The notes beneath the pieces were generated by a model that saw only the letters and a program-made list of their open reading frames with translations, searched no databases and was not told the origin of the DNA. A DNA stretch of 64,000 bases from an uncultured Actinomycetota bacterium. Lineage in GTDB: Bacteria > Actinomycetota > Acidimicrobiia > Spongiisociales > UBA5794. Positions 6,402 to 64,000 of the stretch are shown here, one piece after another. The position numbers and the translations under genes are program-made. The DNA lies in NCBI GenBank assembly GCA_963785245.1, contig CAWAUO010000022.1:2334-66333 (forward strand), read 5' to 3'. Positions within the stretch are counted from its first letter, which is position 1. Every line of letters begins with the position of its first letter.

Positions 6402-7967
6402 GTGGCGAGCGGAGCCACAGGCCACGCCTCGGACGGCGACTTCGATCGCGTGCTGGTCGTCGATTTCGGCGCCCAATACGCTCAGCTGATTGCTCGCCGC
6501 GTTCGTGAGGCTCACGTCTTCTCGGAGATCGTTCCCCGGGACATCACAGCCGCCGAGGTGGCGGCGCACGCTCCGGTCGGCATCATCCTGTCGGGCGGCC
6601 CGGCATCGGTCTACGAACCGGGTGCCTACGGCATCGATCGGGAGATCTTCGAACTCGGCATTCCGGTGCTCGGCATTTGCTACGGGCACCAGATTCTGGC
6701 GGACGGGTTGGGCGGAATCGTCGACCGCAACGATGTCGCCGAGTACGGGCCGGCCGATCTGACGGTCACCGGCGAGTCGACGCTCTTCGCCGGTCTTGCC
6801 GCAGAGCAGCCCGTGTGGATGAGTCACAGCGACGCCGTGAGCGAAGCGCCCCCGGGATTCGTTGTAACGGCTTCGACGGCCGAATCTCCGGTGGCCGCGA
6901 TGGAGAATCCGGAGCGCCGCCTCTACGGCGTGCAATTCCACCCTGAGGTCGGACATACGCCTCGCGGGCAGGAGATGCTGAAGCACTTCCTGTACACGGC
7001 GTGTCGCGCGCGGCCAACCTGGACCCACGTTGGAATCATCGAGCAGTCCGTCGCTGCGATCCGCGAGGAGGTTGGCGACGGCACAGTAATCTGTGGCCTC
7101 TCCGGCGGTGTCGACTCATCGGTCGCCGCTGCACTCGTCCACAAGGCGATCGGCGATCAACTCGTCTGCGTGTTCGTCGACCACGGTCTGCTCCGCAAGG
7201 GAGAAGCCGGGCAGGTCGAGGAGACGTTCCGTCGAACGTTCAACATGAATCTCATCCACCTGAGGGTCGAGGATCGATTCCTCGAGGCACTCGCAGGAGT
7301 CACCGATCCCGAACAGAAGCGGAAGATCATCGGCGAGACGTTCATTCGGGTGTTTGAGGACGTGGCGACGGATGTCGTCGATTCCGCCTATCTGGTGCAG
7401 GGCACGCTGTATCCCGATGTGATCGAGTCGGGGACGAAGGATGCCGCAAAGATCAAGAGTCATCACAATGTCGGCGGCCTGCCGGACGACATGGCGCTGT
7501 CGTTGATCGAACCGCTCCGTGATCTGTTCAAGGACGAGGTGCGCGCGGTCGGTGAGGAACTCGGCTTGCCCGAGGACATTGTCTGGCGGCAGCCGTTCCC
7601 TGGTCCGGGTCTTGCGGTCCGGATCATCGGTGATGTCACGAGGGAGCGACTCGACATCCTGCGTGCTGCCGACGCGATCGTGCTCGAGGAGATCCACAAG
7701 GCAGGGCTCTATCGGGAACTCTGGCAGACGTTCGGGGTGTTGCCGGCGATCCGGTCAGTCGGAGTCCAGGGAGACGGTCGCACGTACGCCTATCCGCTGA
7801 TTCTTCGGGCTGTCACCTCGGACGATGCCATGACCGCGGATTGGGCACGTCTGCCGTACGACGTGCTTGCGTCGATCTCGTCGCGTGTGATCAACGAGGT
7901 CCCGGGGATCAACCGCGTGGCCTACGACATCTCGTCGAAACCCCCCTCGACGATCGAGTGGGAGTAG
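6402..7967 (+). CDS. guaA: GMP synthase (glutamine-hydrolysing)
   Basis: [46 protein letters not shown]; start moved to GTG at 6402. Confidence 0.97.
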
Positions 7968-8013: not shown

Positions 8014-8146
8014 ACGCCGCGAACCCAGGGTTCTCCACCTCGTATATGACGCCGACAGCCCGCGGATTGGACCGGTGCGATGACCCATCCGATTCTGTGG
8101 GCTCACGGCGCCAAATAGAAGGCGGAGAACCCTGGGTTCAAGGCGT
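8014..8146. repeat. 133-bp long inverted-repeat element (MITE/REP-like), copy 1
   Basis: GAACCCAGGGTTCTCC...GGAGAACCCTGGGTTC termini; homologous to 46738-46870 and 62828-62960. Confidence 0.9.
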
Positions 8147-8216: not shown

Positions 8217-11183
8217 GTGGCCTGGAGCAACGATCCAGAGATGCAGAAGATGTTCATCGACGAGGTGACGGAGCGATCCGCACGCCTTGTCGAGGGAGCA
8301 CAGGCGCTCCGGGCGGGAACCGTAACGCCCCAGGAAGCCGGCGACCTCCTCCGGGAGGGTCACACCATCAAGGGCACCGGGCGTGTCATGGGCTACGACG
8401 ATGTCGGGTCCGCTGGATTGATGCTCGAGATGATCTGGAGATGGATCCAGCAGGGTGAAATCACACCGGCGCCGCTCTTTGGCCGGGTGCTCGAAGCACT
8501 CAGCTCGGCAATCCCCTCGGCGCTCGACGATCCGGCTGGACTCTCAGACGCGATGGCCACCGTCCACGAGTTCTTCGAAGGCCAGGACTTGCCGGATGAA
8601 CTCCCTCCGGCTCCGCAGGTTGATGGAAGTGCGCCTGCCGTGCCGCAGCACGCGGATGTGCCTGGCGAGATGTTTGCCGAAGCACCAGCCGTTGAAGAAC
8701 TCTCCTCGTCACCGGCGATCGCAGACTATGCAGCGGAGCCTGTAGGCGAGGATGTCGAGCTCGCGGTGACCGAAGCGGATACCCCGTCCGGTGGGGGAGT
8801 GACGGAGCCGGTTATGTCGGCCCACGATGCGTTTGCTCAGCTTGCGGATGCTGTGTCTGATGAGGTGGCGGCAAAGCCGGTTGTGTCGGCCCACGATGCG
8901 TTTGCTCAGCTTGCGCATGCAGGGGGCGAAGCCGGCGAACCCGAACCGTTCGTTGATGAGGCAACGGAGCCACCGGTGCTTGCCGTTGCCGAGGAGGATT
9001 CGGCGTCGGACATGACCGCTGCCGAAGATCCGACCGGCGAAGAGACCGTAGATCCAGCCCGTTCGGCCCAGGACGCCTTCGCTGCACTCCGCCGATCGAT
9101 GATGCAAGAAGATGCCGTTGTCACGATCGCCGCTGAACCGGGGGACCACACCGCTGCCGAACCCGAGGATGATGCCGAGGTAGCAACAGCCACTGTCGTG
9201 GACGCCGAGGCGGACGCTGAGACCGATATCGATGAGGGTCTTCCGTTCTCAATCCCTGACAGCGTCGAAGCCACCACAGACGAACCCGAGGACGCGGCCG
9301 ACGACGAACCGCCGGTCGAGGCCGGCGAACACGGGAGCCAGCAAGCGGACGGGGACTCGGGAGAGCCGCCGATTGGCGCGCTGATTGAGTTTCCGATCTC
9401 CGACGGCGAGGGCGTTGACGCGACGGACACAGACGACGCACCGCACCCAGAAGCGGGCGATGCTGCCGCCTCCGGCGACGGTCCGGATGTCGTGGCTCTG
9501 CCATCGAACAAGCGACCGGCCCCACGGAGCACGATGGACTCCGCTGATCTCGGCGGTCTCGTCAAGGCCGTCCAGACTTGGGCTGCCGAGGAGGCGATCG
9601 CCGTCAACACCGGCCGCCTCTACGAACTCGTCAACCACATTGTTTCGCTCCGCATGGACGTGGAGGCCGTGAAAGATCAACTCGCCGAGTTTGCTGAGGT
9701 CGCAGCCGCCGATCCGTTCTTCTCAGACCGCGTATCAAACATCTCTCAAGGGGTCGAGCCCGTCTCGTCGGCATCTGAACTGATCGAGTCCAAGGCGCTC
9801 GCCCTCGCGGCTGCGCCCCTCAAGGACGTGACGAATACGCTTCCCCAACTCGGCCGATATCTCAGCCGGAAAACCGGCAAGGAATTGCGCGTCGAAATCT
9901 TGGGCGACGACATCCTCGTTGACCGGCAGGTGCTCGATCGCATGGGAGACGCGATGCGGCAACTCATTGTCAACTCCGCGGTGCACGGCATCGAAGATGT
10001 CGACACAAGGCTCGGCGCAGGCAAGCCAGGCACGGGCACGATTCGCATCGAGGCGAAGCAATCCGATGTCAACCTCGAAGTAGCCGTCACGGATGACGGC
10101 CGCGGCATCGATTGGCGCGCCATCCGGGAGAAAGGTCTCTCCCAGGGGCTTCTCGACGCGTCGGTAGAATTGGCACCAGACGCGCTGAGATCACTGCTCT
10201 ATCGGAACGGCTTCACCACTCGCGAAGCTGCCGACGAATTGGCTGGAGACGGCGACGGTCTCGCGGTCGTTCGCGAAGCGATGGAGTCGCTGAATGGATC
10301 GCTCCGTGTTGAGAGCACACCCAAGGAGGAGACCCGAATCACGCTGGTCGTCCCAGTCCACCAGGCGATGCAGAAGGCACTGCTGGTGAAGACCGGAGGG
10401 ATCATCTGGGGAATCCCCGAGACCGGAGTGGTCGACGTCGTCGAGATGAACCTCGCAACGATCGCGGTTGCCGATCACACGACCGTCCTCGAGCGAGTCG
10501 ACGGAGATGTGCCGTTCGCCTCATTCGCCGACCTCATGGGATTGTCGACCGACGCAGTGCCTACGTCGATTGTTGTTGCCACGAGTGCGGCCGGACCGGT
10601 TGCGCTGGGTGTCGAAGAAGTCATTGGCGTCCGACGCGTGGCTGCCAAGGAACTCGGTGCGGTCCTTGCTGATGCACAGGCTGAAGAGGTGACCGGCGCT
10701 GCACTTCTCGGGGGCGAACAGGTCGTGCTCCTCGTCGACCCGACCCGCCTCGCTGAGCGGCAGCGCGCGGTCGCAATCGAAGAGCCCGCTTTGCCTGCTG
10801 CCAGGGTTCTCATCGTTGACGATTCCGTCGGCGTTCAGCAGGTCGTGTCCTCGGCCCTCGCCACGAGCGGTTTCAACACCGTGGTCGCTGCGAGCGTCGC
10901 CGACGCCCTCGGATCGCTGCACTCAGGCTCGATCGATGCGGTCGTGGTCGACTTCTCGATGCCACGAGCCGACGGTGTGGCGCTTGCTCACATGGTCCGC
11001 CAGCGGCACGGTGCTCTTCCCATCGTCATGCTGTCTGGAGTCGCCGAGGGAGACGACGTCGAGCGTGCCCGCGAGGCCGGCGTCGACGCCTTCTTCAGCA
11101 AAGCCGACTTCCGCGAAGGTGGGCTCGCTGAGAAGCTCCGCGAGTTGATCATCCTCCGCCGCGAGAAGGAACAGACGGCGTAG
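8217..11183 (+). CDS. CheA-like hybrid chemosensory kinase (Hpt - acidic linker - HATPase - CheW - REC)
   Basis: Hpt LLREGHTIKG, LIVNSAVHGIE, VTDDGRGID, CheW-like VEEVIGVRRVAAK, C-terminal receiver VLIVDDS...VVVDFSMP. Confidence 0.85.
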   Translation: MAWSNDPEMQKMFIDEVTERSARLVEGAQALRAGTVTPQEAGDLLREGHTIKGTGRVMGYDDVGSAGLMLEMIWRWIQQGEITPAPLFGRVLEALSSAIPSALDDPAGLSDAMATVHEFFEGQDLPDELPPAPQVDGSAPAVPQHADVPGEMFAEAPAVEELSSSPAIADYAAEPVGEDVELAVTEADTPSGGGVTEPVMSAHDAFAQLADAVSDEVAAKPVVSAHDAFAQLAHAGGEAGEPEPFVDEATEPPVLAVAEEDSASDMTAAEDPTGEETVDPARSAQDAFAALRRSMMQEDAVVTIAAEPGDHTAAEPEDDAEVATATVVDAEADAETDIDEGLPFSIPDSVEATTDEPEDAADDEPPVEAGEHGSQQADGDSGEPPIGALIEFPISDGEGVDATDTDDAPHPEAGDAAASGDGPDVVALPSNKRPAPRSTMDSADLGGLVKAVQTWAAEEAIAVNTGRLYELVNHIVSLRMDVEAVKDQLAEFAEVAAADPFFSDRVSNISQGVEPVSSASELIESKALALAAAPLKDVTNTLPQLGRYLSRKTGKELRVEILGDDILVDRQVLDRMGDAMRQLIVNSAVHGIEDVDTRLGAGKPGTGTIRIEAKQSDVNLEVAVTDDGRGIDWRAIREKGLSQGLLDASVELAPDALRSLLYRNGFTTREAADELAGDGDGLAVVREAMESLNGSLRVESTPKEETRITLVVPVHQAMQKALLVKTGGIIWGIPETGVVDVVEMNLATIAVADHTTVLERVDGDVPFASFADLMGLSTDAVPTSIVVATSAAGPVALGVEEVIGVRRVAAKELGAVLADAQAEEVTGAALLGGEQVVLLVDPTRLAERQRAVAIEEPALPAARVLIVDDSVGVQQVVSSALATSGFNTVVAASVADALGSLHSGSIDAVVVDFSMPRADGVALAHMVRQRHGALPIVMLSGVAEGDDVERAREAGVDAFFSKADFREGGLAEKLRELIILRREKEQTA

Positions 11184-46140: not shown

Positions 46141-46738
46141 CTCGGTACGGTCTGCCGATCGAGAGGCGCTGGTTCGGCTGCTCGACGACCCGGTCGAGTT
46201 CCTCGAACACGAGGACGCCGACGTGCGTCGGCTCGCGATCTCCGTGTGCGTCGCCTCGGGACCGACCGACGAGTCGATCGCGGCACTTCGCCAACGCCTC
46301 GCCATCGACGAAGACGGCGCGGCGCGCTGCCATGGCCGCGGAGGCGCTCGGGGCGCGGGCGATGCGGCGATCCCAGACCTGGACCGGGCCCGAGCCGATG
46401 ACGATCCGCGTGTGATCGAGTCGGTTGCCACGGCGTACGGCGAGCTCCGGGCGGGATCGGCGGTCCCATGGCTCATCGAGGTGGCGACGGGGGATGGCGA
46501 CCGATCCGGTCGCGAGGCGGCCGTCGCAGCGCTCGGCGCGATCGGCGATGAAGCGGCGCTCCCTGCATTGCTTGGATTGATTGCGAAAGCTCCGCCCCAG
46601 GTCCGCCGCCGGGCGGTTGTGGCGCTGACCGTCTTCGATGATCCGGCCGTCGAACCCGCGATCCGGGACGCGGCGAGGGATCGCAACCCGTCGGTCCGCG
46701 AGGCGGCCGAGATGGTCGTCGGCCGCCAACCCGACTAA
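46141..46738 (+). CDS. HEAT-repeat protein, compensating frameshifts near 46320-46360; start unresolved
   Basis: DADVRRLAI, AMAAEALG, REAAVAALGAIGD, PQVRRRAVVAL, PSVREAA. Confidence 0.7.
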
Positions 46739-46870
46739 CGCTGCGAACCCAGGGTTCTCCACCTCGGATATGGCGCCGACAGCCCGCGGAATGAACGCGG
46801 GTGGCACGATCCGCCATTCCGTGGGCCCACGGCGCCAAATAGGAAGCTGAGAACCCTGGGTTCGCAGCGT
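46738..46870. repeat. 133-bp long inverted-repeat element, copy 2
   Basis: ACGCTGCGAACCCAGGGTTCTC...GAGAACCCTGGGTTCGCAGCGT; first base is the last A of the upstream TAA stop. Confidence 0.9.
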
Positions 46871-61833: not shown

Positions 61834-62863
61834 GTGAGCGAACCACTGCGACTGGCCGTTGTTGGCGTGGGGCGGATGGGGTCGATTCACGCTCGATCCC
61901 TTGCTGCGTGCGACTCGATCGATGTCGACGCCGTCGCTGATGCCGTGCCGGCAGTCGCCGATGCCATCGCCGAGGAAATCGGCGCTCGCGCCTCCTCCTC
62001 CCCGGCAGCCCTGCTGGAACGGGATGACATCGAGGCGTGGCTGATCGCAACTCCCACGGCGACGCATCCGGCCGTAGTCGCGACGGCGCTCGAGGCTGGC
62101 CTCCACGTTCTCTGCGAGAAGCCGCTCGCTCTTGATCTTGACGAGAGCGAAACGATCGGGGCGCTGGCCGCATCCGCCGGGCGTGTCCTCCAACTCGGAT
62201 TCTGGCGTCGCTTCTCACCCCCCTGGGCGGTGGCGAAGGACCTTCTCGACGCCGGCGCAGTCGGTCGTCCCCTGATGCTCCGCCTCGCCCAGTGGGATGC
62301 AGATCCCCCACCGCCTGCGTTCTGTGATCCGCTGGTCAGCGGGGGACTGGCGATCGATTGCGGGGTCCACGAATTCGATCTCGTCGAGTGGCTGACCGGG
62401 CTTCCGGTCGAGACCGTCGATGCGTGGAACCTGCCGCTTGTCGACGAAGCCGTTGGAGACGCGGGCGACATCGACAACCTTGTTGCCGTGCTCGGACTCT
62501 CGGGAGGTGCCGTTGCGACCGTGGATCTGACCCGCAACTGCCGCTACGCGGATGATGTGCGCACGGAGATCCTCGGGGAGCAAGGGGCGATCTTCGTCGA
62601 TCTCCTCCCGGCGGGGCGGACCAGGCTCGCTACGTCGTCCGGTGTTGAGGTCGTGTCCGGGTCGGAGACCGACGGACGCGTTCGTTGACGGGATCGTCGG
62701 CCAGGCCGAAGCGTTTGCGGTGGCCGTGCGCGGGGGCGTGGTCGATGTTCCCGGCGCCGCGGCGAGCACGCAGGCGGTCCGACTCGGTCGCGCAGTCCAG
62801 GAGGCGGCAGCCACCAGAGCCCCCATCACGCTGCGAACCCAGGGTTCTCCGCATCGCAAATGA
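61834..62863 (+). CDS. Gfo/Idh/MocA family oxidoreductase (inositol dehydrogenase-like), one frameshift near 62677
   Basis: GVGRMG, ATPTATH, LCEKPLA, GFWRRF, DCGVHEFD; C-terminus continues in frame of 62552-62863. Confidence 0.85.
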
Positions 62864-62960
62864 CGCCGAGAGCCCGCGGTTCGGCGGGATCGATGCGCCG
62901 GTCCCATTCTGTGGGCTGTCGGCGCCAAATAGAAGGTGGAGAACCCTGGGTTCGCAGCGT
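62828..62960. repeat. 133-bp long inverted-repeat element, copy 3
   Basis: ACGCTGCGAACCCAGGGTTCTCC...GGAGAACCCTGGGTTCGCAGCGT; overlaps the 3' ends of both convergent genes. Confidence 0.9.
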
Positions 62961-63964
62961 TAGAGGCCGCGGGAGGGTGGGGCGGTGGTGGAGCGTTCGA
63001 CCAGCGTCGGCGGGAGGACCAGATGCTTCGGCTTTGTGCGGCCCCCGTCGATCCGCTCGATGAGGAGTTCGACGGCAGTCGCCCCGAGTTCGTGGCGAGG
63101 CTGATCGACCGTCGTAAGCGAGATGTGCTGCAGTCCCGCGAGCCAGGCGTTGTCGTATCCGATCAGCGAGACATCATCCGGGACCGATGCGACCGGCCTC
63201 GAAGAGGGCCTGCAGGGTCCCGATCGCGGCGAGGTCGTTCGCCGCGAAGATGGCGGTCGGATTGGCTCCGATCTCGATCAGCCGCTCGACTCCAAGCATG
63301 CCACCTTCCTCCGCGTAGTTGCCTGCGACGGTGACCGGCTCGAGGCCGTGTGCCTTCATGGCCTTGACGAAGCCGGCTTTGCGGCGCCGGGCCCCTGCGC
63401 CGCGACCGCCGTCGATGTGTGCAATCCGCGTGTGGCCAAGTGCGACCAGGTGATCGACGGCGAGGCGCGCCCCTCTGCGATCGTCGCCGCTCACGCTGTC
63501 GACGACCTTCGACTTGAGGTCGCGAGTGATGAGGACGGTCGGGATCTCTTCGCCAGCCGCGTCGATCGTCTTGAGGTCGAGCAGCGTGCCCGCCAGGATC
63601 AGCCCGTCGGTCTGCAACCTGAGCAGGGTCTCGAGGGCGACGCCTTCCCGCTCGGGGATCCGGCGCCCGCTGTTGAGGAGCGCCCGATACCCGTTCTCCA
63701 ATGCCCGGTCCTCGATCCCGTCGACGACGTCGGCGAAGAACGGATTGTGAAGGTTGGAGAGCATGACGCCGAGGACGTAGGACCGCTGCTGCACGAGGCT
63801 GCGCGCCATCGTGTTCGGCCGGTATCCGAGTTCGCGTGCCGCCTTCGAGGACATCGGCTCGCTTGTCATCGCTGACGTGTGGACGATCCCTGCATCACGA
63901 GCGACACGAGCGACTTCGACACGCCTGCCCGTTCGGCGACATCGAGAATGGTGGGACGGCTCAT
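62960..63964 (-). CDS. LacI family transcriptional regulator, frameshifted
   Basis: MSRPTILDVAERAGVSKSLVSLVM, LGYRPN, NPFF, LGHTRIAHI, AANDLAA, DDVSLIGYDN, LTTVDQP across frames. Confidence 0.87.
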
Positions 63965-64000
63965 GGGGTGACCTCTGGCGGGGGCCGGCAGGGTATCGGT

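Follow-up and report, generated by a model that had tools for sequence, protein, structure and literature searches.

REP/REPIN repeats are a textbook case of small repeats that live with one domesticated enzyme and, to our knowledge, this partner enzyme so far has always been a Y1 transposase. Correia, ERIC/IRU, RUP and Nezha are classical bacterial MITEs, and CCWGG is the sequence context of Vsr action. REP elements are reported to occur with RAYT (Y1, IS200/IS605-like) transposases (Nunvar 2010; Ton-Hoang 2012). The layout of REPINs was described by Bertels and Rainey (2011; PMC3116915). In a published survey, DUF559 genes were 14-fold enriched among genes overlapped by long inverted repeats (PMC9881135), and AbiEi binds inverted repeats in its own promoter (PMC7319586, PMC3985639). 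The repeats described here appear to form a REPIN-like family in Actinomycetota that is devoid of a RAYT, and a conserved Vsr/homing-endonuclease-like gene occupies the same L...R frame. Three pairs of nuclease paralogue and repeat were found within one genus.

The window is the whole stretch of 64,000 nucleotides under study and corresponds to C22:2334-66333 of an assembly (G000) of 2.66 Mb in 22 contigs, with 64% G+C and 93.6% completeness. The original prediction placed three elements at positions 8014-8146, 46738-46870 and 62828-62960 of the window, each of 133 nt and in one shared orientation. Coordinates, length and orientation proved exact, and the copies align without gaps with 17 further 133-nt copies from the genome. 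Three is the correct number for the window, but is too few for the family: BLAST and an nhmmer arm profile applied to the whole genome revealed ~63 units of 57 nt at 36 loci. Forty of the 63 units are arranged in 20 inverted doublets of exactly 133 nt that align without a single gap, and the other units are 'halves' that stand alone, tandem repeats of 60 nt (e.g., C11:178729-178845) and composites. The sequence GAACCCWGGGTTC occurs 58 times in the genome and is practically confined to units of the family. The copies are far beyond chance. A search of the accessible literature found no paper with the palindrome GAACCCWGGGTTC, with a DUF559-REP link or with REPIN/RAYT in Actinobacteria. The 133-nt elements are an undescribed family of hairpin-shaped DNA repeats in a genus of uncultured Acidimicrobiia.

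Each 57-nt unit consists, in order, of an outer (A/G)CGCYGC motif, the perfect 13-nt palindrome GAACCCWGGGTTC and ~37 nt that close with GCCCRCRGAAYG. In a doublet, an L-type arm, a 19-nt centre (positions 58-76) and an R-type arm are joined tail to tail, with GAACCCWGGGTTC in each arm. The L-type arm (..CCACCTCGTATATGACGCCGACAGCCCGCGG..) invariably is partnered by an R-type arm (..CCGCATCCTATTTGGCGCCGTGGGCCCACAG..), with 10 diagnostic positions separating the two types; single and tandem units are mostly L-type. Conservation of the arms is ~90%, and the centre is near random and fast-evolving. The terminal inverted repeats of ~20 bp that were predicted correspond to the pairing of positions 1-23 with 111-133, the inner stem that was claimed is real, and there is no ORF within the copies, as also had been stated. 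A fixed asymmetric AAATAG bulge is absent, contrary to the prediction. Such a bulge is not needed because the two 57-nt arms stay in register when paired, with mismatches at fixed positions and G-T wobbles at two conserved ones. The suggestion of selection for length was well founded, as doublets occur in sharply separated length classes (133, 122 and 144 nt): in this genome and its relatives, distinct doublets measured 133 nt (49), 122-123 nt (12), 134 nt (3) or 144 nt (1). Spacings between palindrome centres are 106/107, 95/96 and 117 bp, which are steps of approximately one helical turn; the pattern carries little weight, as all members of the 122 class belong to one subfamily and may go back to a single event.

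Copy 1 in the window (8014-8146, plus strand) comprises an L arm at 8014-8070, a centre at 8071-8089 and an R arm at 8090-8146. The 13-nt palindrome of its L arm, GAACCCAGGGTTC (8021-8033), is partnered by GAACCCTGGGTTC at 8127-8139 with a centre spacing of 106 bp. The copy is located 46 nt past the stop codon of guaA (7965-7967) and ahead of a CheA-like gene that starts at 8217, and no stop codon is touched. A doublet also is present at this site in the relatives G006 and G016, in reversed orientation. Copy 2 (46738-46870, plus strand; palindromes at 46745-46757 and 46851-46863) has as its first base the final base of the TAA stop codon (46736-46738) of an ORF at 46223-46738. The last base of copy 3 (62828-62960, plus strand; palindromes at 62835-62847 and 62941-62953) belongs to a TAA stop codon (62960-62962, minus strand) of a minus-strand frame, and orthologous doublets with related centres are found in G006 and G016. 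Within 62961-63998, the minus-strand frame that abuts this TAA is open for only 105 codons and a second minus-strand frame extends from 63174 to the end of the window. The two frames may be one gene split by a frameshift or an assembly error, possibly a regulator-like one, judging from a short stretch of its sequence.

All units are positioned outside ORFs or at the very ends of ORFs. A TAA, TAG or TGA codon is found at an offset of -2 to +1 in 76 of 161 non-redundant unit ends, compared to a maximum of six at each of the other offsets. Of 53 unit ends in this genome, 19 coincide with the stop codon of a long, high-GC3 ORF, as against 0.17% of random positions. The flank consensus is C-T-R-R followed by CGCYGCGAACCC, with C-T-R-R on the gene side alone. 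A TA duplication of the IS630 type was considered and rejected, as CTA/CTG is present on the gene-facing side only. The stop-codon lock matters for gene calling, as some ORFs end in, or are lengthened by, the element. At C14:1354-1486, the upstream ORF runs 15 codons into the element and then encounters TGA, whereas the ORF stops after six different codons in G006, which has no element there; thus, the repeat rewrote the C-terminus of the protein. Single or tandem L-type units, including those at C11:178729-178845, C6:401620-401675 and C13:169479-169533, often are situated between co-directional genes, flush with the upstream stop codon and 50-130 nt ahead of the next start codon (ask, typA and a HerA-like ATPase gene).

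A long and stable predicted hairpin (alifold -55 kcal/mol) would be expected if the elements were structured non-coding RNAs or riboregulators that are co-transcribed with the upstream gene, and the G-U wobbles at pairs 49/85 and 51/83 are retained in 35-40 of 48 copies with one strand folding better. However, when the full hairpin was assessed in 48 distinct 133-nt copies from several genomes, 76.3% of cells were paired compared to 76.4% in column shuffles. The same copies yielded a covariation score of 0.081 versus 0.080 in shuffles, so that no covariation was detected, and contained no compensatory changes that keep the hairpin. An Rfam search with the element produced no match at the gathering threshold. 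Moreover, orientation is mixed, as the arm entered from the adjacent gene is L in nine stop-locked doublets and R in five, and has been flipped in evolution, with orthologous doublets inverted between species. Copies also have shrunk to a 27-nt palindrome or are missing while the neighboring genes are intact. The structured RNA under selection for its fold that was envisaged in the original prediction is not borne out by these data, and an RNA family of this type is very improbable. The variable apex, which was said still to pair, does so weakly: mirror pairing of the central positions is as frequent as column composition predicts, and folding of the centre surpasses that of its shuffled versions only slightly (mean z = -0.34; z > 0 in 44% of copies). 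A centre hairpin under selection was rejected on both counts. An intrinsic terminator was sought in 20 copies, none of which has a T-run or U-tract behind the hairpin; the R arm ends in ...GCAGCGT and is followed by unique flanking sequence. The 133-nt elements probably are REPIN-like non-coding DNA repeats that act as DNA and not as RNA.

The family was detected in 19 of 20 genomes of the same genus, in none of four other genera of the family and, within the order, in one of 16 genomes. When one genome from each of 185,579 species was scanned for exact 18-mers, matches were confined almost entirely to a small number of MAGs from uncultured Actinomycetota/Acidimicrobiia, and among them were 60-nt units in tandem arrays, at most four units long. 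In G000, the copies are scattered singly over 12 contigs and, in comparison with integron attC sites, no cassette arrays are formed. The orthologous site of copy 2 was readable across both flanks in 16 relatives. It is occupied by a 133-nt doublet in G016, by doublets of 121-123 nt in G001 and G003, by sister variants with ATACCC or GTACCC palindromes in G002, G012, G005, G007, G018 and G015, and by three tandem units in G017. A bare palindrome of 23-27 nt is present in G006 and G009, and the site is essentially empty in G020 and G011. Genome-wide, G016 (flanks ~85% identical) has retained the doublet at 17 of 19 loci, and G006, a closer relative with flanks that are 90-95% identical, at five of 17. 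At five to six loci, G006 possesses a minimal palindrome that equals the doublet minus exactly 106 nt, and three to four loci are clean or near-clean empty sites. Minimal palindromes are 24-27 nt in length after loss of the segment between the two palindromes. The comparisons reveal precise gain or loss, as well as inversion, of this segment. Two loci of G000 each correspond, on contigs C11 and C13 of G006, to two non-identical orthologous regions that are ~90-96% identical mutually, which suggests that this MAG mixes two strains, consistent with its listed contamination of 5%.

Arms and centres follow different courses. Palindrome variants are species-specific and the arms are alike within a genome while the centres drift, and therefore the arms undergo concerted evolution. 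Orthologous centres evolve fast and are recognisably related. Some copies within a genome have a centre in common although they are not orthologous, with 20 of 21 positions matched in the best G016 pair, and this sharing reflects copying or conversion of whole doublets.

Empty sites and the absence of target duplication, both raised in the original prediction, were borne out by the relative G006. The cleanest empty site, C17:139400, reads 'caccggct|ctagtgg' in G006 versus 'caccggct[G ACGC...GCGT]ctagtgg' here. The insertion is directly 3' of CTAG on the minus strand, is unaccompanied by target duplication and truncates an overlapping convergent gene via a new TGA codon. Empty sites in a relative are compatible with classical MITEs whose parent insertion sequence shared their terminal inverted repeats and whose DDE or other transposase is encoded elsewhere or has been lost. 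The 23-bp terminal inverted repeats, uniform length and dispersal of the copies fit this origin, and centres shared by some copies would be expected of copies of a master element. However, the clean empty site without a target-site duplication contradicts it, single units and 60-nt tandem arrays are un-MITE-like, and simple copying would not yield arms that are much better conserved than the centre. Furthermore, no transposase-like ORF is present between any pair of units here: unit pairs that are a few kb apart mostly enclose housekeeping genes (asd, ask, typA, ABC transporter), and half-copies as the ends of an insertion sequence were rejected as the enclosed ORFs are housekeeping genes with a nuclease gene as the sole exception. 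A MITE origin is remote. The label MITE/REP-like given in the original prediction is apt for its second part, as the copies are dispersed, extragenic inverted doublets, but not for classical MITEs, as target duplication and a transposase between the ends are both missing. The prediction also raised a RAYT: a search for RAYT/Y1 (PF01797) found none in the 93.6%-complete genome, and the same search matched six control genomes.

The exceptional gene is bracketed by an L-type unit (C13:171911-171966, plus strand) and an R-like unit (C13:172934-172990, minus strand). This arrangement, C13:171911-172990, has the form of an L...R doublet with a centre of 967 bp, is located between two convergent genes and has the stop codons of these genes flush with its ends. 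The units enclose a minus-strand ORF of 309-319 amino acids (C13:171955-172881 for the 309-aa protein), the last four codons and stop codon of which are inside the L unit, and a palindrome-bearing unit is positioned 22-52 nt upstream of the start codon. The protein showed sub-threshold Pfam matches to REase_MTES_1575, DUF559 and AbiEi_4; homologues carry PF18741 and PF13338 in precomputed annotation and are named 'DUF559 domain-containing', 'AbiEi antitoxin domain-containing' or 'very-short-patch-repair endonuclease'. The catalytic D...ExD...H motif and the RDRxRD motif are invariant in 21 homologues. In an AlphaFold model (mean pLDDT 88.7), the N-terminal 200 residues matched the fold of an AbiEi antitoxin (6y8q, E = 4.7e-5), and the C-terminal 100 residues matched I-Bth0305I (3r3p, TM 0.80), Vsr (1vsr, 1cw0) and the DUF559 protein NGO0050 (3hrl, TM 0.81). 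A PDB sequence search with the protein or a profile gave no match, and the matches derive from the fold search alone. The gene is predicted to encode an AbiEi-like winged-helix DNA-binding part joined to a Vsr/I-Bth0305I-like PD-(D/E)xK nuclease.

Orthologues with 68-87% identity (clade A) are present in 17 of 20 genomes of the genus, and all are bracketed by L-type and R-like units. The bracketing units carry the palindrome variant of the respective genome, which is common to its dispersed units. G006, G009 and G015 have no clade A gene, and a minimal palindrome alone is found at the syntenic site between the same two stop codons; therefore, the gene-bearing cassette collapses as doublets do. 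G006 also is the genome in which most doublets have been lost. Paralogues with 52% identity in six genomes (clade B) are bracketed by inverted copies of 50-58 nt of a sister repeat (GTGCYCTGCGAACCCWGGGCTCG...). The sister repeat is dispersed in 3-24 copies in all six gene-bearing genomes versus four of 15 genomes without the gene, an association with a Fisher p of ~0.004 when phylogeny is ignored. More distant paralogues with ~30% identity (clade C) are bracketed by hairpin repeats of 46-60 nt that are unrelated in sequence and also dispersed. Repeats without the matching paralogue occur as orphans in the form of 11 clade B-like copies in G014 and three clade C loci in G000. The latter genome has this third hairpin repeat (CCCGTTCTTGCGTAACTATCGGAAGC...GCTTCC...ACGCAAGAAC) at C11:306457-306505, C13:108299-108345 and C11:54813-54865 in the absence of the gene; in G006 and G004, the repeat is present at ~10-20 loci and brackets the nuclease paralogue of 30% identity. 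Clade A and clade B genes each are syntenic, and the bracket of clade A, and likewise that of clade B, thus represents one ancestral event.

Among 27 distant homologues across the phylum, three to five have flanking inverted repeats of 17-51 nt, compared to 13 nt or less in mis-paired control windows, and with these numbers a bracket that is universal in the wider protein family was rejected. Between glyA and the atp operon, within C19:37240-37760, G000 has a short DUF559 gene of the canonical form (C19:37341-37649, 125 bits), on either side of which another repeat, triplex-like in character (TTCTTCCCCTGAGGGGGAAGGAATCGAAGGGGAGAAGG), is present in inverted copies. A second copy of DUF559, at C17:23103-23422, is frameshifted. 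Flanking of the glyA/atp DUF559 gene by the 57-nt unit family was rejected, as its triplex-like repeat is unrelated. Many metagenomic contigs that encode the nuclease are only 1.0-1.3 kb in length, approximately the gene with its flanking units, and it seems that assembly is interrupted by the repeat on either side of the gene. The repeats therefore affect the assembly of MAGs, in which nuclease-encoding contigs often are only ~1.0-1.3 kb.

Bracketing is not restricted to the nuclease gene, as other housekeeping genes in this genome are flanked by inverted single units, e.g., asd-ask and the stretch C13:117786-119826. This observation favors host-maintained gene-end elements without a dedicated enzyme, such as mRNA 3'-end stabilisers, transcription barriers or nucleoid-protein sites, that spread and shrink by recombination and slippage and for which the nuclease gene is a passenger. 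The exact lock of unit ends on stop codons, the retention of elements at the same intergenic sites across the genus, the synteny of the nuclease gene and the lack of flanking repeats in most distant homologues all accord with this explanation, and the helical-turn steps in spacing fit a binding site on duplex DNA. Against it are the missing covariation and U-tract, the mixed 9/5 orientation relative to the adjacent gene that flips between species, and the species-specific palindrome variants that gene-flanking and dispersed units have in common. In addition, three paralogue clades, each with its own dispersed bracketing repeat, are not expected of a passenger. Host-maintained elements are unlikely, although less so than an RNA or a MITE family.

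Granted that the elements are REPIN-like DNA repeats, the nuclease is a candidate for their working partner, with a chance a little short of even. The family would depend on a protein that acts in trans and recognises the 13-nt palindrome, and the best candidate is the gene that is built like a giant doublet, with an L-type unit, a 0.97-kb gene and an R-like unit (C13:171911-172990). In its favor are the brackets around all clade A genes, the separate repeats of clades B and C, the minimal palindromes at syntenic sites that have no gene and the DUF559 enrichment in the published survey. A putative dimeric winged-helix nuclease may read the palindrome, the core of which contains CCWGG, and nick or cut at or near the palindromes, after which recombinational repair from other copies would follow. 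Repair of this type would homogenise the arms and leave the centre and flanks, which lack homology, unaffected. The interior would be removed or flipped if both palindromes were cut or if slippage took place from one to the other, and repair might occasionally seed new copies. Insertion would take place immediately 3' of a C-T-R-R word and without duplication, in the manner of IS200/IS605-type elements, with purifying selection in a compact genome leaving mainly those copies that are right after stop codons. By extension, it is proposed tentatively, with the odds leaning somewhat against it, that AbiEi-fused Vsr-like (PF18741/DUF559-type) nucleases are a second, independent class of 'repeat-keeping' enzyme in the role of a RAYT. 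Each paralogue would read the palindrome of its own repeat and would maintain, homogenise, flip and occasionally spread the doublets by cut-and-repair, the gene itself would be a giant doublet, and in genomes that have lost the gene, such as G006, G009 and G015, doublets would collapse to minimal palindromes. A general process of collapse may have removed both the gene and the doublets in G006, with gene loss as an effect and not a cause, and replication slippage can precisely delete the segment between palindromes without a dedicated enzyme. The persistence of repeats at ordinary loci across the genus also speaks against the nuclease as partner, as do the orphan repeats, the brackets around other genes, the single ancestral event behind each syntenic bracket and the small number of distant homologues with flanking repeats.

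If the link to the nuclease is functional, it would provide a job for a large orphan group of proteins (DUF559, 'AbiEi antitoxin domain' and 'very-short-patch-repair endonuclease'). Concerted evolution of the arms beside free centres would be explained, and the gain, inversion and precise loss that occur in nature would provide a system that is testable in vitro.

Comparison with AbiEi operators reveals two points of likeness, an N-terminal AbiEi fold and a palindrome-bearing unit upstream of the nuclease start, but there is no AbiEii toxin partner here and the repeats are dispersed genome-wide. With I-Bth0305I, Vsr and DUF559 nucleases (3r3p, 1vsr, 1cw0, 3hrl) the protein has in common the C-terminal fold (TM 0.80-0.81 to 3r3p and 3hrl) and the D...ExD...H motif, and the CCWGG within the palindrome core is a likeness to Vsr. 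In contrast to these enzymes, an AbiEi-like DNA-binding part is present at the N-terminus, the gene resides in neither an intron nor an intein, and the nuclease is predicted from fold and motif. BoxC/PIT triplex repeats, which G000 also has around the DUF559 gene at C19:37341-37649, provide another case of a Vsr-like nuclease gene between inverted copies of a dispersed repeat. However, that repeat (CTTCCCCTGAGGGGGAAGG...) is unrelated to the 57-nt unit family, and the present protein has the long form with an AbiEi fusion (PF18741), unlike the short DUF559 genes of BoxC/PIT. Inspection for a triplex motif found that the stem GAACCC/GGGTTC is not homopurine/homopyrimidine and that the following TCTCCACCTCG is not its mirror. 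Classical MITEs resemble the elements in being 100-150 bp, non-coding and intergenic with terminal inverted repeats and, on occasion, overlapping gene ends. They differ in that here no target duplication, TA or otherwise, and no transposase-bearing parent insertion sequence were found, units exist on their own and in tandem as well, and the centre is hypervariable.

The closest parallel is with REP/REPIN-RAYT systems. Both have inverted doublets of a conserved, hairpin-forming unit with a poorly conserved spacer of fixed length; most units are in doublets (40 of 63 here) and others are singles or in tandem clusters, the location is extragenic and insertion is without target duplication. Both also have one vertically inherited, single-copy gene that is bracketed by units, and several paralogous genes each with its own repeat family. 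In contrast, the unit here is 57 nt compared to 20-35 nt for REP, there is no GTAG-type tag, units are exactly flush with stop codons, and copy number is in the tens, which is low for a REP family and argues against a REP-type assignment, compared to hundreds for REP. In place of a Y1/RAYT protein, the bracketed gene encodes the predicted AbiEi-like winged-helix and Vsr-like PD-(D/E)xK nuclease. Thus, although a RAYT and compensatory changes, two defining features, are absent, the repeat system works like REP/REPIN-RAYT.
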